Shown in pieces: positions 1,454-56,246 of a stretch of 64,000 nt of DNA (position 1 is the first letter of the stretch; each line of letters starts with the position of its first letter). The notes under the pieces were generated by a model. It saw nothing but the letters and a program-made list of their open reading frames with translations. It searched no databases and was not told the origin of the DNA. The DNA comes from a virus. Position numbers and translations under genes: made by a program. Location of the stretch: positions 141,151-205,150 of IMG/VR virus record IMGVR_UViG_3300000976_000009; one strand, 5' to 3'.

Positions 1454-1817
1454 GGGGATGACTTTGGATTCGACAATCTATAGTCGTAAATAGTAAGCAT
1501 GTACTGCGAGGTAAATAAGCAGTTAAAATAATAGATGCAACTTTTTTAAATGGAAATATTTTTAATATTGACGAAAACTTCCTTGCTAACGCTTCTGTAG
1601 AAGTAGTTGCTGGAGAGGCAATCGCAGCCTAACCGATGCGTTACGGGTTAATAGCCCACAGGAACGAACAATCTCAAGTTGCTAAAATAGGGAAACGTTG
1701 CTTGACAGCTCTAACGTAAAAAATAGTCAAAGATTTGCTAATTTATAAAAATTAGATAAACATGTAGAAATCCGTTGAAGAATAGATTACACGAGGGTTC
1801 GACCCCCTCCATCTCCA
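1454..1817 (+). ncRNA. ssrA: tmRNA; tag GNIFNIDENFLANASVEVVAGEAIAA (1552-1632)
   Basis: GGGGATG/CATCTCC-A acceptor with G3:U70, GGATTCGAC 5' motif, T arm GAGGGTTCGACCCCCTC, tag ORF ending AIAA-TAA. Confidence 0.93.
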
Positions 1818-1937
1818 CGCAAACGCTTTTATACTAAATTCGCTAGTGTAAAAATAAGACCTCATATGGGGACAGAAAAGCTCACAATCGGTGGGCTTTT
1901 TTTGTTTCCAGAAGTATTTATACTTAAAGGACTTATT

Positions 1938-4654: not shown

Positions 4655-4685
4655 CTTGCTATTTAGAAAAAGTTTAGTATCTTTG
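4655..4685 (+). promoter_or_regulatory. Bacteroidota-type promoter driving ncRNA array
   Basis: CTTGCT..TATCTTTG, near-identical to promoters at 13127 and 42657. Confidence 0.75.
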
Positions 4686-4752
4686 TATTGTTGTTAATGA
4701 TAACACAAAAAGAAAAAGTTCTTTATTTTATTGAAATTAAAAAATTGTCATA

Positions 4753-4899
4753 AGAATGATTGCAGCAAATTGTACAAATTCAAACAATCTACAGTTAAGA
4801 AGAAAGAGGGGTTTTAGTATAGGCTTCCCCACGGTAAATCCAAATTGAATAGCTGCCATGTTGCTAGGCTCATGTAAAAATAGCTTAAACTATCATTCT
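4753..4899 (+). ncRNA. stem-CAGCAA element 1
   Basis: AGAATGAT-TGCAGCAAA...ATCATTCT-G. Confidence 0.6.
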
Positions 4900-4916
4900 G
4901 GACAAACTTATTATAT

Positions 4917-5014
4917 GGGGAGGTAGTGTAAGAGAGAAAAGAATTTACTTCGGTAAGTTTTCGAGCACGGTAATCCACCAATTACAAGTACAGGTTCAAG
5001 TCCTGTCTTCCCCA
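4917..5014 (+). ncRNA. tRNA-like RNA with hairpin in D loop and CCACCA anticodon loop
   Basis: GGGGAGG/CTTCCCC-A acceptor, T arm ACAGG TTCAAGT CCTGT. Confidence 0.65.
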
Positions 5015-5019
5015 CAAAT

Positions 5020-5071
5020 GGAGATGCATGCATTGAAAGGCATGATTTAAGAGCAATACCTAACATCTCCA
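5020..5071 (+). ncRNA. 52-nt mini-RNA copy 1
   Basis: GGAGATG/CATCTCC-A closing two hairpins with ATTG and CAAT loops. Confidence 0.6.
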
Positions 5072-5182
5072 CAATTGGGTTTATTAGTATTACCTACAAA
5101 CGAAAGTGACTTTAGTTGACACATCGATTTGAATGGTTGAGACTACGCTAGTTCATGACTAGATAAGCCCACAGCGTTTAAC

Positions 5183-5244
5183 GGTTAGTTACAGCAAATT
5201 ATTTAAAACATTAGATTCAAACTCTAAAGCGTTAAAGACTAACC
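5183..5244 (+). ncRNA. stem-CAGCAA element 2 with isolated CAA anticodon stem-loop
   Basis: GGTTAGT-TACAGCAAA..TTAGA TTCAAAC TCTAA..ACTAACC. Confidence 0.65.
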
Positions 5245-5418
5245 AGATAGATATTCCGCTAGAATATTTGAATTTTAGCGAATACAACTCTTTGATTCCC
5301 TTGACACTTACTTGGGAACTTAAGGTGGAAGACCTTTTCGAAGAGCACATGGTAATGAGTATATTAAATCTTAGGGTTTTATGATACTAAGAAGTTCAAT
5401 CTTCACATTCCCACACAT

Positions 5419-5491
5419 TGCGGGGTAGAGCAGTTGGTAGCTCGCAAGGCTCATAACCTTGAGGTCGCTGGTTCGAGTCCAGCCCCCGCTA
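5419..5491 (+). tRNA. tRNA-fMet (CAT)
   Basis: cloverleaf, 1:72 mismatch, loop CTCATAA. Confidence 0.9.
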
Positions 5492-5496
5492 CACAT

Positions 5497-5547
5497 GGAG
5501 ATGCACTTATTGTGAAAAGTGATTAGGAGTCAATACCTACATCTCCA
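5497..5547 (+). ncRNA. 51-nt mini-RNA copy 2
   Basis: same layout as 5020-5071 with compensatory stem changes. Confidence 0.6.
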
Positions 5548-5552
5548 CATAC

Positions 5553-5608
5553 GGTTCGGATAACTATCCCCAAGACAGTTATTAGGAAGTTAAATTTTCC
5601 CCGAACCA
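5553..5608 (+). ncRNA. D-armless tRNA-like RNA
   Basis: GGTTCGG/CCGAACC-A, ATAACT/AGTTAT arm, T-like arm. Confidence 0.45.
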
Positions 5609-5613
5609 CTAAA

Positions 5614-5671
5614 AGAGTCCGTTCAGCAAAAATTTATAATTTTTTTTAGGATAAAAACAAAAGGTGACTCT
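5614..5671 (+). ncRNA. stem-CAGCAA element 3 (minimal)
   Basis: AGAGTC..TTCAGCAAA...GACTCT-G. Confidence 0.5.
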
Positions 5672-5684
5672 GTATTATTAAACT

Positions 5685-5710
5685 AAAGCTAACTTAAGTT
5701 AGCTTTTTTT
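5685..5710 (+). terminator. intrinsic terminator
   Basis: AAAGCTAAC/GTTAGCTTT plus U-tract. Confidence 0.75.
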
Positions 5711-10076: not shown

Positions 10077-10157
10077 GGGAATAGAATGAATTGTACACGG
10101 CTAGTACGAGTCAGCCTCTAAAACTGATAATATGTGGTTCGAGTCCACCTATTCTCA
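10077..10157 (+). tRNA. putative amber suppressor tRNA (CTA), atypical 8/4 fold
   Basis: TCAGC CTCTAAA ACTGA anticodon arm; GGGAATAG/CTATTCTC; GTGG TTCGAGT CCAC. Confidence 0.7.
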
Positions 10158-11280: not shown

Positions 11281-12435
11281 ATGAAAGAGTTTATTAGAAA
11301 TAGAATTAGAGAAAGTCTTATTATGGAGAACAGAGTAAAATTTAGTATTCCGATACCAGCAGACATTAATGCGATAAAAGATGTGTTCGTTAAAAATGGT
11401 CACAAATTATTTGTCGTTGGTGGTGCGGTTAGGGATTCATTACTTGGCAAGTCACCAAAGGATTGGGATTTAGCTACTGATGCAGTACCAGATAAAGTAG
11501 AAGAGATGATGAAGGGTGCTGGACTTAGAACAATTCCAACAGGTAAGCAATTTGGTGTTATTAATGTTTTTACCGAAACGGATGAATACGAAATTGCAAC
11601 ATTTAGAAAGGATATTGGTTCTGGTAGAAGACCAGATGAAGTTGAATTCACAACAATAGAACAAGACGTTAAAAGGAGAGACCTTACAATTAATGCATTA
11701 TTTTTTGATATCGATACTGGCGAAGTAGTTGACCTAGTTGGTGGAATTGAGGATTTGAAAAATGGTGTTGTTAGAACTGTTGGTAAGGCTGAGGATAGAT
11801 TTGGTGAGGATAGACTTAGAATACTTAGAGCAATTAGATTTGCTGGAAGATTTGGTTCTGAACTTGACCCAGCAGTAGATAGTGCACTTAATAACGATTC
11901 TTCATTAGAAGGTGTTTCTGGTGAGAGAATTAGAGATGAATTCCTTAAGGGATTGAGAACAACTAAGTCAGTTGTACATTTCATGAGATTAAATGAGAAG
12001 TATGGATTACTAGACCAAATTTTTGATGGTCTTAATGTAAATAAGGATTTCATTGAAGAAAAAGAACCAGCGATTCAATTAGCTTGGGTATTAGTTAATA
12101 ATGAACCGACTAAATTAACTAAAGATTTGAATAAGTTAAAATACTCTTCAAATGAAATTAAAGCTGTTACATTCTTAGTGGCATTAACTGATTTCAGAGC
12201 AACGGGTGTTGTACAGTTCAAGAAACTACAAATGAAGTCTGGAGTACATTCAAATTTGATTAAGAAGTTCGCTAAGTTAATTAACTTTGATGAAACAATG
12301 CTCACAGCATTCCTTGAGTTCCAATTAAGTGTGAATGGACAAGATGCCGAGGAAGCTGGGATACCAAAAGGACCAGAGATGGGGATATGGATAAACCAGA
12401 AAGAGGTCGATAATTTTCAAGCACTACTAAATTAA
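11281..12435 (+). CDS. cca: CCA-adding tRNA nucleotidyltransferase
   Basis: VGGAVRD, DWD, RRDLTINAL, EDRLRILRAIRF, ERIRDE. Confidence 0.92.
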   Translation: MKEFIRNRIRESLIMENRVKFSIPIPADINAIKDVFVKNGHKLFVVGGAVRDSLLGKSPKDWDLATDAVPDKVEEMMKGAGLRTIPTGKQFGVINVFTETDEYEIATFRKDIGSGRRPDEVEFTTIEQDVKRRDLTINALFFDIDTGEVVDLVGGIEDLKNGVVRTVGKAEDRFGEDRLRILRAIRFAGRFGSELDPAVDSALNNDSSLEGVSGERIRDEFLKGLRTTKSVVHFMRLNEKYGLLDQIFDGLNVNKDFIEEKEPAIQLAWVLVNNEPTKLTKDLNKLKYSSNEIKAVTFLVALTDFRATGVVQFKKLQMKSGVHSNLIKKFAKLINFDETMLTAFLEFQLSVNGQDAEEAGIPKGPEMGIWINQKEVDNFQALLN

Positions 12436-13126: not shown

Positions 13127-13298
13127 GCTTGCTAATTAAAAAACTTTTAGTATCTTTGTAATAGTTATTTTCGATTAATTGGAGACGTAATAGTTACCAA
13201 AATAGTCAAGGTATGTTTAATGAAGAAGAAGGGTAAAACCTTCAATTTATAAGAAACTAAAAAAGCCTTGACTATCCAGTCAAGGCTTTTTTTTTTTT
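13127..13298 (+). promoter_or_regulatory. promoter plus attenuator 1 (leader frame ..SINWRRNSYQNSQGMFNEEEG*)
   Basis: TATCTTTG 13151; TAGTCAAGGT 13203-13212 complementary to terminator 5' arm GCCTTGACTA; terminator 13261-13298. Confidence 0.7.
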
Positions 13299-17619: not shown

Positions 17620-18252
17620 ATGGAATTAAAAATTGACCAAATTGCTAAGGGGACTAGAATTATATCTGGTGAGCAAGCTAAAGAAAGGCGTATCTTATTA
17701 AACCAAATTATTGAATTGGTTGAGTTAGAAGGCTATAATGAAATTATTCTACCTTGTGTGGAAAAATCTGAGGTATACACAGATAAAGCTGGTCAAGAAA
17801 TCCTTGGTCAAATGTATACATTCCCAGACAAGGGTGGCAGAAGTCTATGCTTAAGACCAGAAGGTACCGCAACTGTTCAACTATTAGCTGATAAATACTA
17901 TCCTACACAGAAGGATGTTAAGTTGTGGTATTTTGAAAGGTGTTGGAGATATGAGAAACCACAAGCTGGTAGATACAGAGAATTCTTTCAATTCGGATGT
18001 GAATGGGTTAACCCAAGAGACCCAGAAAAAGCAAAACAAGAACAAATAGAACTATCTAAGAAATTAATTGGGTTGAAGACTACGGAATTTGAATTAAATG
18101 ATTCAGCTAAGCGTGGTCTTTCTTATTATGATGGGGATGGTTTTGAAATTTCAGTACCCACTCTTGGTGCTCAAAAACAAGTTATGGGTGGTGGTAAATA
18201 TAAACAAGGTATTGGTTTTGCAATTGGTTTTGATAGATTAATGCTTTGTTAA
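17620..18252 (+). CDS. hisS: histidyl-tRNA synthetase, catalytic core only
   Basis: LRPEGTA, RYEKPQAGRYREFFQFG, RGLSYY, GGG.Y, GFAIGFDRL. Confidence 0.85.
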   Translation: MELKIDQIAKGTRIISGEQAKERRILLNQIIELVELEGYNEIILPCVEKSEVYTDKAGQEILGQMYTFPDKGGRSLCLRPEGTATVQLLADKYYPTQKDVKLWYFERCWRYEKPQAGRYREFFQFGCEWVNPRDPEKAKQEQIELSKKLIGLKTTEFELNDSAKRGLSYYDGDGFEISVPTLGAQKQVMGGGKYKQGIGFAIGFDRLMLC

Positions 18253-26347: not shown

Positions 26348-27475
26348 ATGTTAAAAATAGTAGCTTACATAAAGAAGTATGGTCTTGAAAAGACATTAAA
26401 GGACTTTAATTTAAAATCTAGAGACTACCCAAACAAGGTTTTGATTAAGTATGACCAAATAGCATCGTCTATGGGGGAATCTATAGTACAAGAAGCTAGA
26501 GGTCTTATACTGGAAAAAGGAACATGGAAGGTTATGTCATTACCATTCTACAAGTTCTTCAATTCAGCTGAGGGTCATGCGGCAAAAATTGATTGGGATA
26601 CTGCACACGTACTTGAGAAGTGTGACGGTACTATGATACAATTATATTGGGACTGGAACAAGAACACTTGGTGGGCTGGTACTACAGGTACAGCTGAGGG
26701 TGAAGGTGAGGTAAACAACAAGTTGGGTACTACATTCAATGAATTGTTTTGGAAGACTGTTGCAGATAAGTATGGTCTTACACCAGACTCTAGATTCCTA
26801 GAGAAGACATTTGTATATGTGTTTGAGTTAACTACTCCATATAATATTGTTGTAAAGCCACACGGTGAGTCTTCTGTTACATTGCTTGCAATGAGAAACA
26901 GAAATACACTTGATGAATTACCATATAATATTTTAAGAATTAAAGCTGAGGAAATTATTAATGTACCATTAGTTAAGTCATTCGACTTGAACGAAGGTAA
27001 TGTTGGTAAGTTGTTGAGAACATTCGAAGACATGATGTGGTATGAAGAAGGTTATGTTGTTGTTGATGGGAATTTCAATAGAATTAAGATTAAGAACCCA
27101 GCATACGTTGCTGTGCACCACTTGAAGTCTAAGACTTCTGAGCATGCAATTATGGGTGTTGTTAAGACTAATGAGATTGATGAGTTTGCTGCTACTTTCC
27201 CAGATAGAAAAGAAGAGATTGAAGGTTTGAAAGATAATTATGATGCTCTTATTCTTAAATTGGAAAATGGTTGGAATATCTTGAAAGAGAAAAAACCAAA
27301 GAATATTACACCAAAGGAAAGTAAGAAGTTCGCTATGGCTGTTTTTGAAGTTACTAAGGAATTAGGGCTTGAGAAGTTCCACGGTATGTTCTTTGCACTT
27401 AAAGATGGGAAGGTAGATAATGTGAAGGAATTCATGTTCAATTACGATAACAAAACACTATACAGAATGCTATAA
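26348..27475 (+). CDS. RNA ligase, T4 Rnl1-like
   Basis: EARGLI, KFFN, EKCDGT, FELT, EGYVV, RIKIK. Confidence 0.85.
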   Translation: MLKIVAYIKKYGLEKTLKDFNLKSRDYPNKVLIKYDQIASSMGESIVQEARGLILEKGTWKVMSLPFYKFFNSAEGHAAKIDWDTAHVLEKCDGTMIQLYWDWNKNTWWAGTTGTAEGEGEVNNKLGTTFNELFWKTVADKYGLTPDSRFLEKTFVYVFELTTPYNIVVKPHGESSVTLLAMRNRNTLDELPYNILRIKAEEIINVPLVKSFDLNEGNVGKLLRTFEDMMWYEEGYVVVDGNFNRIKIKNPAYVAVHHLKSKTSEHAIMGVVKTNEIDEFAATFPDRKEEIEGLKDNYDALILKLENGWNILKEKKPKNITPKESKKFAMAVFEVTKELGLEKFHGMFFALKDGKVDNVKEFMFNYDNKTLYRML

Positions 27476-31032: not shown

Positions 31033-32082
31033 ATGATGGAACCGAAATTATTTAGAATGCCTAGCATCGAAGCATTTAGACATGTTATTCAACAAGTAAC
31101 ACATAGAGCTAGATATAGAGGTGATGATGAAACGGGGCAACCAATTTATGAGAATTGCGCTTTACCCACCTTAAAATTTAGAGGTAGTGTGAAGATGCAT
31201 GGAACTAATGCTGGGATTGTATTTATGTGGGACAAAGATAGTTCTACTTACAATATGCATGCTCAATCTAAGGGTCTTATAATTACACCAGTTAAGGATA
31301 ATGTGGGTTTTGCCGCATTTGCACATACTAGCGGTGTTGATAATTTAGTTGAAGAAATTTTAGGTGATTTCGATGGTGAACAACCAGAGGTTATTAGAGT
31401 TTATGGTGAATGGATTGGTAGAAAAATACAAAAAGGAACACCTTATAATACATTAGATAAAATGTTTGTAATATTCGCAATTAAGATAGATAATAAATGG
31501 TTATCTGAGGATAAATTATCTATGGTTAAGATGTCAGATAAAAGAATATTCAACATTCTAGACTACCCAACATATGAGATATTAGTTGACTTTAATAACC
31601 CAAAGATTGCTGCTGAGGCAATGGCTAAGTTAGTTGATAATGTTGAAAAAGAATGTCCAGTAGGTAAAGCCTTTGGGATTGATAATGGTGTTGGTGAAGG
31701 TATTGTTTGGGTTTGTACAACTGATGGTTGGGGTAGTTCTAGATACTGGTTCAAAACTAAGGGTGAAGAACATAAGTCTTCTGGTACTAAGGAGAAGGTG
31801 CCAGTTGATATTGAAAGACTTAATTCTATTAACGAATTAGTTGATTCATTTCTTACTAATTCAAGATTAGAGCAAGGTTTAGACCAAATTAGGGAGAATC
31901 ACCAAGAGTTATCTAGAAAATCTACTGGATTTTATGTTAAATGGGTTAGTGGTGATGTTGTTAAAGAAGAATTAGATACTATTGTTGGAAATGGTTTCGA
32001 AGTCAAAGAGATAACTAAAACGGTCTCCAATAAAGCTAGAAAATGGTTTTTTAATAAATTAGATGAAGGGGTTGGTTTATAA
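31033..32082 (+). CDS. RNA ligase, Rnl2 family
   Basis: KMHGTNA, YGEW.G..IQKG, GEGIV, FKTK. Confidence 0.82.
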   Translation: MMEPKLFRMPSIEAFRHVIQQVTHRARYRGDDETGQPIYENCALPTLKFRGSVKMHGTNAGIVFMWDKDSSTYNMHAQSKGLIITPVKDNVGFAAFAHTSGVDNLVEEILGDFDGEQPEVIRVYGEWIGRKIQKGTPYNTLDKMFVIFAIKIDNKWLSEDKLSMVKMSDKRIFNILDYPTYEILVDFNNPKIAAEAMAKLVDNVEKECPVGKAFGIDNGVGEGIVWVCTTDGWGSSRYWFKTKGEEHKSSGTKEKVPVDIERLNSINELVDSFLTNSRLEQGLDQIRENHQELSRKSTGFYVKWVSGDVVKEELDTIVGNGFEVKEITKTVSNKARKWFFNKLDEGVGL

Positions 32083-42603: not shown

Positions 42604-42746
42604 GTAATTGATAATCAAATAGTTATAAAAAAATATTAAAATTAATTAACAAAAAGCTTGCTAATTAAAATAACTTTAGTATCTTTGTAGTATATTTAAA
42701 AACAAGGGGTAACCCTTAATAGAAATAAAAAACAAAAACATTTTCA

Positions 42747-42830
42747 ATGCAAACAATTGTAAACATATTAACACTTAACTTAGTCTTATGCCTAGTGGTA
42801 TTAGACGGGTCGAGCTATGTGTTTATGTAA
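42747..42830 (+). CDS. leader peptide MQTIVNILTLNLVLCLVVLDGSSYVFM
   Basis: 27 codons, Leu/Val/Cys cluster, overlaps antiterminator. Confidence 0.8.
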   Translation: MQTIVNILTLNLVLCLVVLDGSSYVFM

Positions 42831-42886
42831 GTATAGAAAACTTAAACATATTTAAGCTCGATTCGTAACTGAATCGAGCTTTTTTT
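42810..42886 (+). promoter_or_regulatory. attenuator 2
   Basis: TCGAGCTATGTGTTTA pairs with TAAACATAT..AGCTCGA; terminator AAGCTCGATTC/GAATCGAGCTT plus U-tract. Confidence 0.85.
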
Positions 42887-42899
42887 ATGTATAATAAAT

Positions 42900-42983
42900 G
42901 CCTATGTGCTTGAGTGGTCGAAAAGTGCGGTCTGCAAAACCGTAAGGGAAACCTCATCGTTGGTTCGAATCCAACCATAGGCT
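42900..42983 (+). tRNA. tRNA-Cys (GCA), long variable arm
   Basis: GCGGT CTGCAAA ACCGT, U73. Confidence 0.85.
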
Positions 42984-42999
42984 CAAAAATAAAACAATA

Positions 43000-43071
43000 G
43001 GTCGGGGTGACCGAATGTTTAGGTAGTTAGCTGCAACCCTCCTTATGCTGGTTAGATTCCATTCCCCGACT
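43000..43071 (+). tRNA. tRNA-Cys (GCA), degenerate
   Basis: loop CTGCAAC, weak anticodon stem. Confidence 0.5.
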
Positions 43072-43240
43072 CTACAATAATGTAATAACTAAAAATGAGG
43101 GTTATGAAACAGGGGTAACAAATAAGACTAGAGAATTTAGAAAACAATTCTTAGTCGAACGAGAACACACAGGAAGAGAAATAGTCACTTTCTGGGAAAC
43201 GGGTAAATCATATTTTATTGAATATATTGAACCGAGAAGC

Positions 43241-43447
43241 ATGAATAAGAGTGGTTGGGGTGATATTGACCCAGCGACTAAAAAGGTAACTGGTTCTTAT
43301 GGTAATAAGTACAAAGGTGCAATTAAAGCAGATGAATCTATGATTACTAAAGAGAATGGCTTCGAAAATATTATTGAAGGAATGGGTTCTCCATATGCAC
43401 AAATTGAATGGATGCATAATAAATGGAAAACTGAAAATGGATACTAA
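43241..43447 (+). CDS. hypothetical protein; frame open upstream to about 43070
   Basis: ORF WGDIDP..GSYG.KYKG. Confidence 0.6.
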   Translation: MNKSGWGDIDPATKKVTGSYGNKYKGAIKADESMITKENGFENIIEGMGSPYAQIEWMHNKWKTENGY

Positions 43448-43619
43448 AAATGGATACATTAAGAAGTATAAAATTGACTAGAGAACAAAAAAAAGAAATA
43501 AGGAAAATAGTCAATAGATACATGAGGAAGCAAAGAAATCGAAAGATTAGACAACTAAAAGAATGGTTGGTGCTTCATAAGAATTAAATAAAGTGGAAGG
43601 TTGTAATTCCTTCCAATAT

Positions 43620-43691
43620 TGGAGTATAGCTCAGCTGGAGAGCGGGTGTGTTACATGCACTAGGTCGGGGGTTCGAATCCCCCTACTCCAA
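43620..43691 (+). tRNA. tRNA-Val (TAC)
   Basis: GGTGT GTTACAT GCACT. Confidence 0.85.
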
Positions 43692-43698
43692 CTAAAAT

Positions 43699-43770
43699 GC
43701 TCTGTGGGTGTGATGGTTAGCATACTTGTTTTACATGCAAGTTGAGTAGGTTCGATTCCTACACAGAGTA
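43699..43770 (+). tRNA. tRNA-Val (TAC)
   Basis: CTTGT TTTACAT GCAAG. Confidence 0.88.
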
Positions 43771-43777
43771 CAAATAT

Positions 43778-43858
43778 GGGGATGTGGCGAAATGGTTCAC
43801 GCAGCGGTTTTAGAAACCGTATCTTAATTGACTGTGGGTTCGAATCCCACCATCCCTA
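43778..43858 (+). tRNA. tRNA-Leu (TAG)
   Basis: GCGGT TTTAGAA ACCGT. Confidence 0.88.
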
Positions 43859-43872
43859 CTAAAAATTTATAT

Positions 43873-43952
43873 TGCGGGTGAGTGAAACGGATATATAAAT
43901 CATTCTGGGCTCATAACCCACGAGATACTAGGTTCGACTCCTAGACCCGCTA
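43873..43952 (+). tRNA. tRNA-fMet (CAT)
   Basis: TGGG CTCATAA CCCA, 1:72 mismatch. Confidence 0.8.
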
Positions 43953-43958
43953 CAAGAT

Positions 43959-44029
43959 GGTTCCATAGTTTAATGGGAGAACGTCACCTTGACATGGTGA
44001 TAGCGAAGGTTCGATTCCTTCTGGAATCA
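43959..44029 (+). tRNA. tRNA-Val (GAC)
   Basis: TCACC TTGACAT GGTGA. Confidence 0.92.
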
Positions 44030-44044
44030 CAAATAGTACTACAC

Positions 44045-44133
44045 GGGGGTGTGGGCAAATTGGAAAAGTCAGTGGGTTTAAGCCCCACGGTAAACGTAAG
44101 ATACATCTGCGGGTTCGAGTCCCGCCACCCCTA
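44045..44133 (+). tRNA. tRNA-Leu (TAA)
   Basis: GTGGG TTTAAGC CCCAC. Confidence 0.85.
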
Positions 44134-44145
44134 CTAACTATTCAT

Positions 44146-44233
44146 TGCGGGGTAGTGTAATTGGTAACATGCTGGGCTCATAACCCAGAGAAGCGGTAAC
44201 ACCGTGTTCTAGGTTCAACTCCTAGCCCCGCTA
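44146..44233 (+). tRNA. tRNA-fMet (CAT), long variable arm
   Basis: CTGGG CTCATAA CCCAG. Confidence 0.8.
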
Positions 44234-44239
44234 CAAGAT

Positions 44240-44324
44240 GGTCGCATGGTGGAATTGGTAGACACGCCAGACTTAAAATCTGGTGCCCATTACGGGCGTG
44301 TGGGTTCGACTCCCACTGCGACTA
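44240..44324 (+). tRNA. tRNA-Leu (TAA)
   Basis: CCAGA CTTAAAA TCTGG. Confidence 0.93.
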
Positions 44325-44350
44325 CAAGGGGTTCGAAGTACAAGAACCTT

Positions 44351-44434
44351 GGCGATATGGTGAAACTGGTAAACACAGCCTCGGATGGGGCGGGGTTTGA
44401 CTCCCCACTGTTGGTTCGACTCCAACTATCGCCA
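44351..44434 (+). ncRNA. tRNA-Leu-like body with tetraloop instead of anticodon loop
   Basis: Leu-type D arm and long arm; GCCTC GGAT GGGGC. Confidence 0.65.
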
Positions 44435-44437
44435 CAA

Positions 44438-44524
44438 AGGATGATTACAGCAAATGTAACTAGGTTAAAAAACATGATTCAAACTCAAGTTCAGATGGTT
44501 CAAATCCATTAAATTCATCATCCT
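44438..44524 (+). ncRNA. stem-CAGCAA element 4 with D-like, CAA and T arms
   Basis: AGGATGAT-TACAGCAAA..TGA TTCAAAC TCA..ATGG TTCAAAT CCAT..ATCATCCT-G. Confidence 0.7.
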
Positions 44525-44530
44525 GTCCAT

Positions 44531-44614
44531 CCCCAAGTGGTGGAATTGGTAGACACGCTGTCCTAAGAAGGCAGTGCTAGTAATAGCGTGTGGGTTCGAC
44601 TCCCACCTTGGGGA
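44531..44614 (+). tRNA. tRNA-Leu (AAG)
   Basis: CTGTC CTAAGAA GGCAG. Confidence 0.85.
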
Positions 44615-44619
44615 CAAAT

Positions 44620-44701
44620 GGGGGTATGGCGGAACGGTATACGCAGCAGTTTCAAAAACTGTGGTCCTAGAGACATGTGGGTTCGACTCCCATTACCCTT
44701 A
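44620..44701 (+). tRNA. tRNA-Leu (CAA)
   Basis: GCAGT TTCAAAA ACTGT. Confidence 0.88.
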
Positions 44702-44743
44702 CTAAAATTAGGGGTTCTAATTTATTTAACTTATATTTGTATT

Positions 44744-44905
44744 ATGAATGATGAATTTTATAGTTTGGTTATGTTTCCTTATCCATCTGGTGATGGATTA
44801 CATGTTGGTCATTATTATAATTATGCGATTATGGATTCATTTAATCGTTGGAAGAGTATAAAGGAATTAAGGTGTTTCAACCATTTTAAAATGGTTTATC
44901 CCTAA
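44744..44905 (+). pseudogene. leuS: leucyl-tRNA synthetase N-terminal fragment
   Basis: MFPYPSGDGLHVGH; alternate frame gives YKGIKVFQPF then stop. Confidence 0.75.
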
Positions 44906-46248: not shown

Positions 46249-46405
46249 TTAAAAAAAATACTCTTAAAATACAATAAAAATAAGGGTTTTGAAAAAAAAA
46301 TAAAAAAAAATAGTGAAAAAACTTGCCATTTAATAAAAGTTTTGTATCTTTGTACCATACTTATAAACAACGAGACTAAATTTAGTCTTACAAAAATAAA
46401 AAAAA

Positions 46406-46495
46406 ATGAACACATTAATTAACATATTTGAATTTAGCTTTGAAGCTGCCGAGGATGATTGCATCTTGGGAAGGTCAAGTTATGTCAAAAGTTAA
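46406..46495 (+). CDS. leader peptide MNTLINIFEFSFEAAEDDCILGRSSYVKS
   Basis: 29 codons, Phe/Glu/Ala/Asp cluster, overlaps antiterminator. Confidence 0.8.
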   Translation: MNTLINIFEFSFEAAEDDCILGRSSYVKS

Positions 46496-46552
46496 GTGTT
46501 AAAAAACATAAACTAAACATTACAAGCCTTCCAGAAACGGAAGGCTTTTTTT
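46469..46552 (+). promoter_or_regulatory. attenuator 3
   Basis: GGAAGGT pairs GCCTTCC; terminator AAGCCTTCC/GGAAGGCTT plus U-tract. Confidence 0.82.
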
Positions 46553-46562
46553 ATGCACATAT

Positions 46563-46634
46563 GTGACCTTGGAAGCAGCGGTACTTCGCTTGGTTGAAGC
46601 CCAAGAAAGCTCGGTTCGAATCCGAGAGGTCACA
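46563..46634 (+). tRNA. tRNA-Phe (GAA)
   Basis: CTTGG TTGAAGC CCAAG. Confidence 0.88.
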
Positions 46635-46639
46635 CACAT

Positions 46640-46712
46640 AGCCCCATCGACTAGCGGTCAAGGTCGCCACCCTCTCAAGGTGGAAACATCGGTTCGAATC
46701 CGATTGGGGTCA
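46640..46712 (+). tRNA. tRNA-Glu (CTC)
   Basis: CCACC CTCTCAA GGTGG. Confidence 0.88.
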
Positions 46713-46747
46713 CTAAGATTTAGTTCTTTGACATATTGAAATGATTT

Positions 46748-46819
46748 GGTGCGGTAGCTCAGAGGTAGAGCAGTAGGTTGAAAACTTACGTGTCGGGGGT
46801 TCGAATCCCTCTCGTACCA
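46748..46819 (+). tRNA. tRNA-Phe (GAA)
   Basis: GTAGG TTGAAAA CTTAC. Confidence 0.92.
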
Positions 46820-46825
46820 CAAAAT

Positions 46826-46900
46826 GCTCGGTTCGTCTAACGGCTAGGACGGGTGGTTTTCAGCCATCAAATAGGGGTTCGATTCCCCTACCGAGTACCA
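46826..46900 (+). tRNA. tRNA-Glu (TTC)
   Basis: loop TTTTCAG, encoded CCA. Confidence 0.9.
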
Positions 46901-46948
46901 AGTGTCAGTTTCTAGTGGTTCTGAACGAAATAAAATTTCACTAATTTT

Positions 46949-47020
46949 CGCCCGTTCGTCTAACGGTTAGGACGTTAGGTTTTCAACCTAAAAATAGGAG
47001 TTCGATTCTCCTACGGGTGA
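46949..47020 (+). tRNA. tRNA-Glu (TTC)
   Basis: TTAGG TTTTCAA CCTAA. Confidence 0.92.
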
Positions 47021-47090
47021 CTATGTTAATAAACACTGCAATGTTTATTACAGAAACCAATGAACTATTTGCAGATAGGTAAGTTGGTTT

Positions 47091-47161
47091 TGAATGTTCG
47101 TCTAGCGGTTAGGATACTGCCCATTACGGGTGGAGACACGGGTTCGAATCCCGTACATTTA
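47091..47161 (+). tRNA. Glu/Asp-body tRNA with aberrant loop CATTACG
   Basis: TCGTCTAGCGGTTAGGA D arm, perfect T arm, no U33. Confidence 0.55.
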
Positions 47162-47232
47162 ACAAACGCCCGTTGAGATATTACGAATCGATAGGGAGAA
47201 TGAGTATGACTGTTAGGAAAGACTAACAATAT

Positions 47233-47307
47233 GGTCCAGTGGACGAAATTGGTTTAGTCGTCACCCTTTCAAGGTGAAGGTTGCGGGTTCGATTCCCGTC
47301 TGGACTA
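47233..47307 (+). tRNA. tRNA-Glu (TTC)
   Basis: TCACC CTTTCAA GGTGA. Confidence 0.92.
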
Positions 47308-47318
47308 CTAAAAACTAC

Positions 47319-47391
47319 GGTCTGTAGGTCAAATGGTTAAGATGCCTCCCTGTCACGGAGAGCGGAGCGGGTTCGACTCCCGTATGGACCG
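47319..47391 (+). tRNA. tRNA-Asp (GTC)
   Basis: CTCC CTGTCAC GGAG, G73. Confidence 0.9.
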
Positions 47392-47399
47392 CAAAGTAA

Positions 47400-47470
47400 C
47401 GTCCATTGGTGTAATGGTAACATGACTGGTTGTCTCCCAGTTGCTAAGGGTTCGATTCCCTTATGGACGG
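47400..47470 (+). tRNA. tRNA-Asp (GTC)
   Basis: ACTGG TTGTCTC CCAGT. Confidence 0.82.
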
Positions 47471-47481
47471 CATAATCACAC

Positions 47482-47554
47482 GGCTGGTGTGGTGTAACGG
47501 TAGCATACTTCCCTGTCACGGAAGAGGTTCGGGGTTCGAATCCCCCATCAGCCG
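47482..47554 (+). tRNA. tRNA-Asp (GTC)
   Basis: CTTCC CTGTCAC GGAAG. Confidence 0.88.
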
Positions 47555-47561
47555 CAATAAT

Positions 47562-47637
47562 GGTCTAGTGAGCCCCATTGGTAGGGGATTTGCACTGTCT
47601 CTGCTCAAAAACGAGGGTTCGACCCCCTCCTAGACCC
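47562..47637 (+). tRNA. tRNA-Asp-like (GTC)
   Basis: GCA CTGTCTC TGC. Confidence 0.6.
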
Positions 47638-47640
47638 CAT

Positions 47641-47710
47641 GAAGTCATAGTTTAGTGCAAGAACGCCACTTAGACGGGTGGAAATACGAGTTGGATTCTC
47701 GTTGACTTTA
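47641..47710 (+). tRNA. degenerate tRNA, identity unclear
   Basis: cloverleaf with irregular anticodon loop. Confidence 0.45.
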
Positions 47711-47720
47711 CAAATATTTT

Positions 47721-47797
47721 GGGGGCACATGTCCCAAGGCTGGCGAGGTAGGTTTGCACCTTCCCTGTGGTGGGTTCGATTCCCACTGTCTCCACCA
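47721..47797 (+). tRNA. tRNA-Ala (TGC)
   Basis: G3:U70, loop TTTGCAC, encoded CCA. Confidence 0.82.
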
Positions 47798-47809
47798 AAA
47801 TAACATAAT

Positions 47810-47882
47810 GGGGCTATGGTGAAACTGGCTATCATCGTTGACTTGCACTCAGCAGTTCCGAGTTCGAACCTCGGTAGCTCCA
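47810..47882 (+). tRNA. tRNA-Ala (TGC)
   Basis: G3:U70, GTTGA CTTGCAC TCAGC. Confidence 0.9.
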
Positions 47883-47883
47883 C

Positions 47884-52144: not shown

Positions 52145-52652
52145 TTTTTAAAATAAACTTGCAAGTTTGAAATATTAATTATAAATTTGCACAGTTAGAA
52201 ATAACAAAACGTTTTTTGAAATCTTGGAGTAATTAAAAATAATGTTTGGTAGTACAAAGATAGAGCGGTGCTCGGTAGGTACATTAACGAGGTAGGGACC
52301 AAATACATATACAGAATGCAGTTCTATTTGTCTTGCAAGACTAGAACAGGTAAACATTATCCCCTTAATTGGATTAGTGTAGGTTAAAATGGTGGTTCAA
52401 ATCCCTCATTCTGTGCAAAATTGGGGTGTTGGTCGCACAGGTCCTTGACGGACTGTTATTCTAGATGTGCATTGTGGTTCGATTCCACGTACCCCAGCAA
52501 GTCTCAGTTAGAAATGACAATAATTAAATTAATAAGGTTGAACCCCTTAACCACTTAGACAGACAGAGACAGGTTCTGTAAGTAAATTATGAGGAATAGT
52601 AGGTATAGTTTATTCTAGGCTCTGCGGGAAGTGCACTTCTACTAGAATGCTT

Positions 52653-52725
52653 GGTGACGTAGCTCAGTTGGTAGAGCAATGGATTGAAGCTCCATGTGTC
52701 GCTGGTTCGAATCCAGCCGTCACCA
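52653..52725 (+). tRNA. tRNA-Phe (GAA)
   Basis: ATGGA TTGAAGC TCCAT. Confidence 0.93.
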
Positions 52726-52869
52726 CGAAATCTTGCCTATATCAGCACCGCTAGTTTTATAGGATAGTTAAATACCTACCCCGTGCAGAAACGATTGCAG
52801 TCGTCTGTGGTAGAGGTGTTTATAAAATACGATATAGGACTGAGACGAGCGGGAAAACCTATATCACAT

Positions 52870-52982
52870 GGAAAGGTAGCTCAGATAGGTATATAGTAGA
52901 TAACATGTTATTAGATGATATACTTCGGTAGAGCAATGGGTTGAACACTCATGTGTCGTTAGTTCGAATCTAACCCTTTCCA
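52870..52982 (+). tRNA. tRNA-Phe-like with ~40-nt hairpin in D loop
   Basis: GCTC..GAGC D stem, ATGGG TTGAACA CTCAT. Confidence 0.65.
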
Positions 52983-53493
52983 CAGGTCTGGATGAATGTT
53001 ACAAGAGACGGAGCTTTTTAAATGTCTAAACAGTAACCACGTTTGATTTTCGTGATGAACTAATCTGCTGGGTAGTGCCCAAAAGAAAAACCACTACATG
53101 GGGAAAATCCAGAAGTAACTGGTAAATCGGCTGGCGTTAATCGCACGGAATCAAGTCGTAATTAGGGTGAACAAAAATCCGTTATACCTTAAGATTGTAA
53201 GTTAAAATCTTACTTTCTCCACAAGTTCGCTCCACGCTGGGGAGATTTGTTTCTTATCTCCTATGATGAGGCAGAACACCAAAATATCAGCTGAGAAGTG
53301 TGATTGAGGTTATTACTGTAGAAAAACAGGTGCAAGCAACTTTACTAAAACATCTCTTATGGAGGTTTGGTTCATACGAATAGATATTGTTCTATTGAAG
53401 GTACAGTTTGGGCTAAAAACATCATATAAGAGTTCTCGGAAGTTTGAGAAGACGTAATTTTAAAAGAGATGACATCGGGAAAGACTGAAATTT

Positions 53494-53654
53494 GGGTTGG
53501 GAGTTACGATTGGTTGAATGGTTCCTATTAGTACGGAACACCAAGGCAGAACATTAGTTTATTTGAGTGGCTTAAGACACGAAATGATTTAGGTGGGTCT
53601 GTATTAGGTTCGGGCGAATCCCGAAGGTTGCTGGTTCGAATCCAGTTCAATCCA
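53494..53654 (+). ncRNA. enlarged tRNA-like RNA
   Basis: GGGTTGG/TCAATCC-A, T arm GCTGG TTCGAAT CCAGT. Confidence 0.5.
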
Positions 53655-53778
53655 CGAATCTCAATACACATAGTCAGTGTATTAAATGTTGCATAACAGA
53701 CTCAGTTAAAAAAATGAGAGAGCAACGGAAGGAAAGTTTTCGCAAACCTACTTAGCTTTTGTAAGGTAAAAGCAACTT

Positions 53779-53829
53779 GGGGGTGTAACCAATTGTGGGT
53801 TATTGATGGGGCAATACCATCCACCTCCA
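53779..53829 (+). ncRNA. 51-nt mini-RNA copy 3
   Basis: GGGGGTG/CACCTCC-A (G3:U70), ATTG and CAATA loops. Confidence 0.6.
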
Positions 53830-54282
53830 CAACTAACCACCAATGCCTCTGCTAGCATGCACAATTTTGGTATCGAAGGAAAACTAGTTAGTACTGAGAC
53901 AGAGTTAAGCGATTCTCTAGGGTAGTTAAAATCGCAAATGGGGTTATCACGCCTTTTGGATTACGTTGGAAAGTTACAACCAACGCCTTTGGGTAATATT
54001 GGTAAGTCGGTAACATATTATAAGGTGTACATAAATGTACTAGTTACACACTACTTGTAATGTAAGAATGATAATGTTGGTTCGAGTCCAACTAATCCCA
54101 CTAGTGGTAGTTTGATTGAATGCTTGGGTCGCTCTTAAGTTGAAGGTTAAATATTACTTGCTCGAAGGGTCGCTCCCAAAGAGTCCCTTAGAAGTTCAAT
54201 TGGCTGAACGCCCTCTCGATGGGGGAGGCTGAGGGTTCGAACCCCGTCTAAGGTACAAAGAAGCTAAACGTATAATAGCTTT

Positions 54283-54366
54283 GGTGATATAGAGCAGTTG
54301 GTAGCTCAGTTGGCGAGGGAGTAATTCCGAACCGAAAGGTCATAGGTTCGACTCCTATTATCACTA
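54283..54366 (+). ncRNA. tRNA-like RNA with GNRA hairpin replacing anticodon
   Basis: fMet-like D arm; GGGA GTAA TTCC. Confidence 0.65.
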
Positions 54367-54397
54367 CAAGCGTGTCCCAACACGTTAATAAGGTTAA

Positions 54398-54514
54398 AAA
54401 ATTGTTACAGCAAATGTAAAAACTTGTATGTGAAACAACAGGACTAGGTTCGAATCCTAGCATAGAGATGGGAACTATGTGGTGTAATGGTAGCATTGAT
54501 AAAAAAGCAATTTT
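54398..54514 (+). ncRNA. circularly permuted tRNA (GTG) closed by stem-CAGCAA element
   Basis: order: anticodon arm, T arm, CATAG/CTATG acceptor hairpin, D arm; AAAATTGT/GCAATTTT closing stem. Confidence 0.72.
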
Positions 54515-54734
54515 GCCCTTTATGGAGTAAGTGTATGTCTGTCATAATTCGTATGAGTTATGATTTTGGGTTCGATTCCCATTTACCCCACAATATTAGT
54601 GGTGAGTCCTACTTAGCCTATTTTCATAGGGGTACAGGTACTTAATGAATGTATAACAGCTACTAATTTTTGAGATGGCTAGGAATGCGTGGAGTCATGA
54701 CCACAATGGGAGTTCAATTCGACCACATCTCACT

Positions 54735-54989
54735 AAAGAATGAGAGCCCAATTGGGTAACTCGCAGTGCGTTTAACAGACCAACTGACACACGTTTGAGT
54801 GGTAGTAATTACCCACGATAATTTTATACCTCTATCATCTGGTAACACTAGTGTTACCTTGTGAAACGTATAGTTGTGAAGGGACTGTGTGCCGAATCTT
54901 GAATTCCGTGACTTGGGATAGGGGTGTCAACACATGGGTTAAGGTAAGCCAGTCGGTTTAGTCACCGAGAAATTGTTATCTCATTCTTT
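54735..54989 (+). ncRNA. unassigned ~255-nt structured RNA
   Basis: 11-bp closing stem AAAGAATGAGA/TCTCATTCTTT, no ORF. Confidence 0.5.
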
Positions 54990-54994
54990 TTAAT

Positions 54995-55135
54995 AGGGAA
55001 GTAGCTCAGTTGTTTAGAGCGTGTGGAAAGCAACCTTAGCTTAGATTATATCTAAGTATCCGAAAGGGTATTCCGTTAGGAAATAAGGTTTGGTTGTGAG
55101 TACCAAGGTCGTTGGTTAGAGTCCAACCTTCTCTA
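54995..55135 (+). ncRNA. tRNA-like RNA with multibranch domain replacing anticodon
   Basis: acceptor, D and T arms intact; three internal hairpins. Confidence 0.6.
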
Positions 55136-55160
55136 CTAATAATAAATAAATTAGTTAACT

Positions 55161-55370
55161 ATGAGTAAAGTAACAGTAATTTTAAATCGTGTAAATTCAG
55201 AAGCACAAGGTGGTTTTGATAAAGAGGTAATTACATTAGCTATAGACCCAAACTGGTCAATTCCAGCAGTACATAGGGTAAATGGTCATAATTATGAGGC
55301 TAGACAAAAAGGTCAAGAAGGTGGTGTTGTAACATATTCTTTGTGTGATTCTGCTATTCCACAAGATTAA
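55161..55370 (+). CDS. hypothetical protein
   Basis: ORF. Confidence 0.55.
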   Translation: MSKVTVILNRVNSEAQGGFDKEVITLAIDPNWSIPAVHRVNGHNYEARQKGQEGGVVTYSLCDSAIPQD

Positions 55371-55372
55371 AA

Positions 55373-55462
55373 TGGGTCTCAGAGTGCCAGCTCCTATAGA
55401 ACCTCCCCAGAGGCGGAAGCAAGCAAGGATATATGGTTGTAGCGGTAGTTCTGAGTAACCTA
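55373..55462 (+). ncRNA. ffs: SRP (4.5S-like) RNA
   Basis: long hairpin with CAGA-G-GC-GGAA-GC-A-AGCA domain IV pattern and distal TGTAGC. Confidence 0.7.
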
Positions 55463-55601
55463 TTTAAGATAATGTCGTTCCCTTAGCGGGGTTCATGTGC
55501 TTATGACGAATACCCAGTGTGGTCGCTTAATTGAAGTTCGTTAGACTATTTTTTAGATGTTGTTCTTTCGTGGTCTTAAAATATGAAGGGAAAAACATTT
55601 T

Positions 55602-55810
55602 AATTGGAGATTTGAACATATAGAGTTCAAGGGTCTTACCTTCCGTGATGGTGACTAATTCGGAGAGCGAAAACGAGAGTAGCTAGACCCTACAAACAGA
55701 AGAATGTTAAATCTATTAGTAAGTCATAGTCTTTGCTGACAATGGGTGCTAATATGTCTGGGCTACGTAGCAGACGTTTAGGTATGAGGGGCAGAACCTC
55801 ACTCCAGTTC
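55602..55810 (+). ncRNA. unassigned ~210-nt RNA with tRNA-like 3' end
   Basis: AATTGGAG/CTCCAGTT plus TGAGG GGCAGAA CCTCA. Confidence 0.45.
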
Positions 55811-56246
55811 AATTGGTGAGAGATACCAATAAAGTTTACAAGGTACTTCAAAAACTTGAGGCTGATATACCCACGGTCATACAGAGGGGTCTGATTGGAA
55901 TATGGGTATTACTAAACCCACCACAGCGATAGTTGACTTTTTATTGGTAGTAAGACACCATTTGTTTTTGAAAAGGAAAAACATTGAACATCTAGCATAC
56001 GGAATCTCAATATGTGACATTGGTTAAAGGAGATTGATTTCGACTTTAACCACATAAATGTGAAAAGAGTGCGCTCGATGATATTAATATCATAATTAAC
56101 ATAGACGGGTTCGACCAGAGGCTGGCATGAGATGTAGGTTTAAGAAAGGTGATAAACACGGATTAGTTCCGACCTATTATTAATTAACGTTAGGACTACC
56201 AATATTTCACATAAAAAATAATTATAACCATTAAATAAATAAAACA

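Follow-up and report, generated by a model that had tools for sequence, protein, structure and literature searches.

The stretch analysed here, called the window below, comprises 64,000 nucleotides (nt) of the IMG/VR virus record IMGVR_UViG_3300000976_000009 (positions 141,151 to 205,150). The source record, that of a jumbo phage, is 353,143 bases long with direct terminal repeats, is 100% complete and encodes terminase, portal and major head genes. Within the window, a promoter, a short leader open reading frame (ORF) and an intrinsic terminator, together termed switch B, lie directly before a block of tRNA genes for Cys, Val and Leu. Switch B is composed as follows (window coordinates).

42658..42687, plus strand: promoter of Bacteroidota type (TTG ... 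TATCTTTG), from sequence; predicted start site near 42692
42747..42830, plus strand: leader ORF of 27 codons, A at -3, no Shine-Dalgarno, from sequence
42759..42803, plus strand: Leu/Val/Cys codon run, codons 5-19, doubling as strand 1 of a 1:2 fold, from sequence and folding
42774-42797, plus strand: predicted sensing window, about codons 10-17, from an equilibrium folding model
42809..42862, plus strand: predicted antiterminator, strand 2 (42809-42828) with 42840-42862, taking the terminator 5′ arm, from folding and covariation
42854..42887, plus strand: intrinsic terminator hairpin and U tract, from folding

The leader (42747-42830) encodes the peptide MQTIVNILTLNLVLCLVVLDGSSYVFM, then a stop codon. 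Leu, Val and Cys account for 11 of the 15 codons at positions 5-19, versus a proteome share of 14.6% (p=5e-7), and these are exactly the 11 codons named in the original prediction (GTA, TTA, CTT, TTA, GTC, TTA, TGC, CTA, GTG, GTA, TTA). The codon run is predicted to form one strand of a 1:2 fold. The stop codon is located 23 nt before the terminator hairpin (42854-42881; −15.8 kcal/mol, z=−5.7). The antiterminator, put earlier at about 16 bp, is present and slightly longer, with 19 pairs (8+9+2) at −18.1 kcal/mol (z=−4.6); at 11 nt, the rival upstream pairing of this terminator is the longest among the terminator-like hairpins listed genome-wide. The promoter motif TTG...TAnnTTTG, which we take to be of Bacteroidota type, precedes 19/20 orthologous B leaders, and a fifth copy in the phage genome (218971) heads no attenuator. 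Small hairpins occur in the 5′ untranslated parts of leader B (42704-42717) and of leader C described below (46372-46389), with similar ones in some relatives.

The downstream block contains the following elements.

42900..42984, plus strand: tRNA-Cys(GCA), tRNA prediction
43001..43071, plus strand: degenerate Cys-like tRNA with an 8-nt anticodon loop, 26.7 bits, under the gathering score
43242..43448, plus strand: small ORF, function unassigned, frame open from about 43082, with look-alikes at the same place in several relatives
43620..43859, plus strand: two tRNA-Val(TAC) and tRNA-Leu(TAG), tRNA prediction
43874..43951, plus strand: initiator-like tRNA-Met(CAT) copy 1, with a mismatched first pair and three G-C pairs in the anticodon stem
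43959..44134, plus strand: tRNA-Val(GAC) and tRNA-Leu(TAA), tRNA prediction
44146..44234, plus strand: initiator-like tRNA-Met(CAT) copy 2, with a long variable arm
44240..44325, plus strand: tRNA-Leu(TAA), tRNA prediction
44351..44435, plus strand: atypical tRNA called Pro(TGG), identity doubtful, tRNA prediction
44531..44702, plus strand: tRNA-Leu(AAG) and tRNA-Leu(CAA), tRNA prediction
44744..44905, plus strand: 53-codon remnant of the N-terminus of leucyl-tRNA synthetase (LeuRS), best PDB match LeuRS 3ziu, E=2.5e-9

All the anticodons announced earlier were recovered (Cys GCA; Val TAC twice and GAC; Leu TAA twice, TAG, AAG and CAA), together with elements missing from that list: two Met(CAT) tRNAs, the odd Pro(TGG), the degenerate Cys-like tRNA and protein ORFs. 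The Met(CAT) tRNAs, which we presume to be initiator-like, also occur inside the Leu/Val block of three relatives (G003, G004 and G005); leader B has no matching control codon for them except its start codon. The unit is thus a tRNA block with small ORFs and holds no amino-acid biosynthesis gene or full synthetase gene; only the LeuRS remnant follows it, and its motif was seen in no other fetched locus.

Four terminators lie directly before tRNA blocks in the phage genome. Block A serves His, Trp, Ser, Asn, Ile, Met and Arg; B serves Cys, Val and Leu; C serves Phe, Glu, Asp and Ala; and D serves Pro, Gln, Tyr, Thr, Gly and Lys. Together the sets partition all 20 amino acids, A, C and D covering the 17 beyond B. 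The sister switches are positioned as follows.

13129..13298, plus strand: switch A, before the His/Trp/Ser/Asn/Ile/Met/Arg block, lacking the 5′ part of the leader including the start codon
46323..46556, plus strand: switch C, with promoter, leader and terminator, then the Phe/Glu/Asp/Ala block at 46563-47883
46408-46497, plus strand: leader C, 29 codons, rich in Phe/Glu/Asp/Ala
46524-46547, plus strand: terminator of switch C
genome C1:205705-205880 (L001), just past the window: switch D, terminator at genome 205844

Relatives were collected around the CCA-adding enzyme, taking the 80 best of 270 IMG/VR loci and the 80 best of 545 metagenome loci, and from 40 further regions; they gave 43 distinct A, 20 B, 14 C and 9 D leaders. 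A Leu/Val pattern search of IMG/VR returned 25 matches, of which 12 were leaders, 3 of them new and usable; a terminator-loop pattern returned 39 loci in IMG/VR, none an attenuator before tRNAs. Our first class table was circular, classes A, C and D and likewise 3/20 B leaders having been picked by peptide motif, and was redone motif-free. When ORF, terminator and tRNA units were classified independently by array and by peptide, without peptide motifs, the two classes agreed in 88/90 distinct units; the filter (an ORF of 18-48 codons whose end is 15-45 nt ahead of a terminator, with a tRNA within 480 nt) was set after the first leaders had been seen. The Leu/Val/Cys share of B leaders is 76% versus a background of 15%, which holds in 17 loci chosen by position. 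In one relative (G001) all four leaders are intact and each is spelled in its own block's amino acids. The best natural control for the match between leader and array is a regrouping in another relative (G019; L238:10395-13990), where, unlike in the four-block plan, the 20 amino acids are shared out between only two tRNA blocks, each with its leader, in a different grouping. Its leaders follow their own blocks, with 16/18 and 18/18 own-set codons as against 2/18 for the other set. Elsewhere, one contig carries a tandem pair of class A leaders (L365 and L366) that differ from each other, are spaced by about 1.5 kb and both precede a His tRNA, and one class B leader starts with GTG (L223, in G004).

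The leader architecture is conserved. The 20 distinct B leaders are 24-30 codons long, with A at -3 in 17/20; the leader frame is open in 20/20 orthologues (in part through selection), against 0/20 and 3/20 for the two alternative frames. In 86/86 classified leaders, 20-35 nt separate the stop codon from the hairpin (the filter allowed 15-45). Among the terminator cores of 17 B leaders there are 14 distinct 9-mers, and strand 2, inside the ORF, changes alongside. Pairing of strand 2 is worth −11.0 kcal/mol with the strand 3 of the same leader versus −6.5 kcal/mol with foreign ones, a difference reached in 0/10,000 permutations of the 17 leaders; strand 2 was mis-picked for one of them (G028). 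A free search of the leader for strand 2 gave −11.4 kcal/mol for own and −7.7 kcal/mol for foreign partners. These data fit a three-way covarying switch in which leader strand, antiterminator and terminator form predicted, mutually exclusive helices. Anatomy, conservation and covariation thus lend good support to the attenuator proposed in the original prediction, and we consider it probable that switch B is a ribosome-dependent transcription attenuator gating the Cys/Val/Leu tRNA block.

Folding models suggest how such a switch would operate. In an equilibrium model of this leader, termination is predicted without a ribosome or once it has passed codon 17, and read-through when it stalls at codons 10-17; over five ribosome footprints this interval shifts only from codons 11-18 to 9-16. 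About 7 of the 11 listed codons fall inside the predicted sensing window, GTA5 and TTA8 being early and GTA18 and TTA19 borderline. In modelled snapshots that precede synthesis of strand 4, strand 3 is sequestered in 17/17 leaders for as long as the ribosome stays within the run, and becomes free once it has moved past. Host RNA polymerase would transcribe the leader with a ribosome following. With ample charged tRNA, the ribosome would pass codon 18-19 and cover strand 2 as far as the stop codon, so that the terminator forms and transcription ends near 42887. A ribosome lingering on codons about 10-17 would leave strand 2 to pair with the terminator 5′ arm, and polymerase would read on into the tRNA genes. 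The block would thus probably be switched on when charged Leu, Val or Cys tRNA is short, whatever the cause.

Several observations weigh against this interpretation. At full equilibrium only 6/17 orthologues drop below 50% termination at any stall position, so that the switch must rest on folding kinetics. For the untranslated state the models disagree, with termination in 16/17 leaders at equilibrium versus strand 3 held in 14/17 in the snapshot. RNAalifold, run on a MAFFT alignment, gave neither long helix, only a 6-bp hairpin in the codon run; since it missed them and the alignment registers are misaligned, helices were compared phage by phage. The relatives, and all leader counts, share ancestry and are not independent, and the p-values are therefore optimistic. 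The second leader of one relative (G006) fits its own array only partly, and two of the four switches of this record, A and D, have no start codon. Finally, changing the candidate control codons of an attenuator-like ilvB leader of Streptomyces had no effect, according to the portion of PMC1262725 that deals with it.

That precedent, the two missing start codons and the equilibrium preference for termination at every stall position in 11/17 orthologues could also be read as absence of codon-dependent control: the terminator would be a fixed leaky one or a processing signal, or the switch would be thrown by a protein or by the leader peptide itself, the ORF being a by-product. We regard this as very improbable. 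It leaves unexplained a peptide composition that fits the array in 88/90 units and is rewritten where arrays are regrouped, as well as the three-way covariation and the 20-35 nt distance from stop codon to hairpin.

Switch B of this record is intact. In switches A and D, a near-identical promoter block is joined straight to mid-leader, the 5′ part of the leader being lost at nearly the same point; the A leaders found in IMG/VR by pattern (41/54 matches with a short ORF and terminator) all have an ATG. The truncated A and D RNAs are predicted to fold into the antiterminator before strand 4 is made, and the two switches may for this reason be locked on; an assembly error is the alternative. A cellular origin of the system was considered and dropped: of 74 GTDB matches to a single sister-A pattern, the only one tried, 2 were real leaders. 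Both (L298 and L349) are of class A and accompanied by tRNAs; their short contigs belong to metagenome-assembled genomes labelled Methanobacterium and Gammaproteobacteria and are probably mis-binned phage DNA.

The closest known systems are the multivalent attenuators of amino-acid operons (thr, ilvGMEDA, ilvBN; also trp, his, leu and pheA of E. coli and Salmonella), with the pheST, trpS and leuS leaders; the ilv leader, for instance, is multivalent. Passages of PMC1183508 describe in amino-acid operon attenuators a short leader ORF with control codons, an antiterminator overlapping an intrinsic terminator, a stop codon just upstream and biased synonymous codons, all found here too. The phage leaders share with the classical attenuators a conserved short ORF after a promoter, cognate control codons and mutually exclusive predicted helices. 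The classical behaviour, in which a stall frees strand 2 and a ribosome at the stop codon covers it, appears in the models (all 17 snapshots, the 6 orthologues at equilibrium). Unlike the operon attenuators, the switch is phage-borne, its output is tRNA instead of biosynthetic enzymes, the genes controlled are neither biosynthetic nor synthetase genes, and four switches cover 20 amino acids. No Rfam leader family reaches threshold here (Thr_leader 14.8 of 55 bits). Synthetase attenuators (gamma-proteobacterial pheST; predicted Streptomyces trpS and leuS) likewise use a leader peptide to control machinery restoring charged tRNA, as outlined in part of PMC1262725, but sense one amino acid and have a protein output, whereas the phage switch concerns several amino acids and tRNA. 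T-box riboswitches share a terminator/antiterminator choice set by tRNA charging; unlike the phage switch, they bind tRNA directly and have no leader peptide. No T-box motif or specifier stem I was matched in Rfam at gathering score or E<=5, and a term search of the accessible text of PMC2494555, on T-boxes, found no mention of ‘tRNA gene(s)’. Searches of PMC and bioRxiv listed no description of tRNA genes under the control of an attenuator. The phage system is conserved and apparently undescribed, resembling classical attenuators in its working but with tRNA genes as the gated output.

The original prediction went further and proposed that the many synonymous codons sense individual isoacceptors rather than amino-acid supply. 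Part of this stands: the exact match of codons to anticodons in this phage is modestly above chance. An exact Watson-Crick anticodon exists for 10/11 leader codons (7.5 expected, p=0.02, post hoc), and 6/7 anticodons are hit by leader codons (p=0.03 by phage usage, 0.19 uniform). Codons and anticodons do not correspond one by one: GTG occurs without a CAC anticodon, and Leu(CAA) without a TTG codon. The array, which is nearly complete, also matches foreign leaders (0.74 versus 0.86 for its own).

The part that failed is the tracking of arrays by leaders. It was evaluated on 16 complete arrays, 4/20 having been dropped as possibly cut and two anticodons corrected by eye, and none was seen (own 0.562, foreign 0.552, p=0.22); a Jaccard version gave 0.46 versus 0.44 (p=0.067). 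GTC is present in 9 phages without Val(GAC) (GTC/GAC link p=0.82), GTG is kept in 12 phages without a CAC anticodon, and TTG and Leu(CAA) are unlinked across arrays (p=0.31). The only linked pair is CTC/GAG (2/3 versus 0/14, p=0.022, uncorrected and one of ten tests). CTT is found in 9/9 arrays with Leu(AAG) and CTC in 2/2 with Leu(GAG), one GAG being read by eye. The leader is thus not indexed one-to-one to phage anticodons, and isoacceptor-level reading is overstated. Nor are isoacceptors and amino-acid supply true opposites: what an attenuator reads is codon speed, and isoacceptors are selectively uncharged when an amino acid is limiting, as stated in sections of PMC1183508.

Leader codon choice is nevertheless non-random. 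Among Val codons of B leaders, GTC makes up 43%, GTG 40% and GTT 0%, versus 6%, 9% and 54% in phage genes, and all three Leu classes appear in 18/20 leaders versus 5.8 expected; for comparison with leader conservation, Leu codon identity in the CCA gene goes down to 0.36. RNA structure is a competing cause of this choice, since CTA, CTT and GTC are paired in the leader hairpin: the first C is paired in 91% of CTT and 86% of CTA, GTC is paired in about 75%, and swapping any of the three costs 1.0-1.8 kcal/mol of leader fold. An argument that CTT and CTA conservation is free of structure, their third positions being unpaired, was dropped as their first positions are paired.

Pairing thus confounds synonymous choice in leader B, and to a lesser degree AAT and CGY of sister A; hints that decoding is under selection are cleaner in the sister leaders. 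In their aligned codon pairs AAT is invariant in 129/130, GAT in 146/146 and TAT in 56/56, versus 57%, 67% and 50% in the CCA gene, and the AAT codons are largely unpaired. Both Arg boxes are sampled in 42/42 sister A leaders (11.3 expected), CGT and CGC interchanging. Thr contradicts such box sampling (1/9 versus 6.1 expected), and that of Val, Ala, Glu and Lys is not above chance. The U-ending codons named above and several G-ending ones (TCG, ACG, CCG, GAG, GTG) are presumably read by phage tRNAs via wobble, and such codons may be the first to slow.

In its strict form, with each synonymous codon a dedicated probe of one downstream isoacceptor and amino-acid supply not the signal, the proposal could draw on the exact anticodons of this phage, on the company of CTT with Leu(AAG) and of CTC with Leu(GAG), on the three Leu classes and on the Arg boxes of sister A. 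Set against these are the absence of tracking, the codons and anticodons that occur without their partners and the folding cost of swapping CTA, CTT or GTC. In addition, a block with one on/off output cannot supply a single isoacceptor alone. We judge this form improbable.

A stalled ribosome signals that a charged cognate tRNA is missing, be it through loss of the tRNA or shortage of the amino acid, and does not distinguish the two. The switches could have evolved mainly as amino-acid starvation sensors like the thr and ilv leaders, codon choice following from hairpin pairing and selective charging and any host tRNA destruction being incidental; this shares the mechanism favoured here and differs in purpose. 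It agrees with the pairing of most G/C-rich rare leader codons and with the biased codons by which, in passages of PMC1183508, classical attenuators maximise sensitivity to amino-acid limitation. Synthetase genes or remnants also follow three matching blocks: the LeuRS remnant (44744-44905) after Leu, a HisRS-like gene (17620-18252) after His, and a full glutaminyl-tRNA synthetase gene (GlnRS; genome C1:210982-212574) after Gln. Speaking against a starvation sensor, a tRNA output would not relieve amino-acid shortage, coverage extends to all 20 amino acids, whose grouping changes freely along with that of the tRNA genes, and the largely unpaired AAT is kept far above its level in the CCA gene. 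Starvation sensing is the more serious of the alternatives, if still an unlikely one. Feedback on tRNA supply would be the more coherent purpose, given a tRNA output and full coverage of the 20 amino acids. As the four switches divide the amino acids among them, they would jointly constitute such a loop, and the loss of one tRNA class could trip a leader because it samples several codon classes per amino acid.

The phage host is probably a member of the Flavobacteriales, judging from the promoter motif and the named relatives of the phage GlnRS (Flavobacteriales and Bacteroidetes). Among GenBank phages no close relative was found, the best CCA-adding enzyme showing 37% identity and DNA matches being at tRNA level only. 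The window holds a transfer-messenger RNA (tmRNA), a Bacteroidales-type signal recognition particle (SRP) RNA and 45 ARAGORN genes. The tmRNA adjoins a ClpP gene, and the CCA-adding enzyme and two RNA ligases are nearby (window 1454-1818, 612-1352, 11281-12435, 26348-27475, 31033-32082), forming a translation rescue and tRNA repair kit that surrounds the arrays. Long series of tRNA-like or other structured non-coding units, mostly unmatched by ARAGORN and Rfam, occupy 4680-5700 and 52200-56200; they follow the same promoter, without leader or terminator, and the SRP RNA (55363-55469) lies inside the second series. One tRNA with the ochre anticodon TTA (47091-47163) is inside the Glu/Asp block, and one with the amber anticodon CTA is at about 10083-10156; CTA tRNAs recur across many relatives. 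Despite these tRNAs, long ORFs end in TAA 111 times, TAG 6 times and TGA 6 times.

Why phages carry tRNAs is a long-standing open question, as noted in passages of PMC10264068, which also describe host tRNA depletion during infection. Phage tRNAs countering host anticodon nucleases (PrrC, VapC, PARIS, retron Ec78; parts of PMC10264068, PMC11464382 and PMC11555353) offer a likely purpose for phage tRNA supply. No inducible codon-sensing control is described for them in those parts, and ‘attenuat’ occurs 0 times in the text of PMC10264068 that is accessible. It is conceivable, and we put it forward tentatively, that a closed-loop tRNA homeostat operates in a large clade of jumbo phages: 2-4 leader peptides would spell the 20 amino acids in the codons most sensitive to tRNA loss, and cleavage or exhaustion of any class, for example by a host anticodon nuclease, would switch on just its replacement block. 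Such a homeostat, if real, would amount to an inducible counter-defence with the ribosome as its reader. More generally, the system would carry attenuation beyond enzyme operons to tRNA genes and beyond bacteria to viruses, and would provide four compact natural reporters jointly covering the genetic code. tRNA blocks that are on when their own codons are read slowly imply that phage tRNAs answer a shortage arising during infection. The condition tripping a leader (starvation, nuclease attack or heavy late translation) would name the pressure behind phage tRNAs, and their purpose would thereby become testable.

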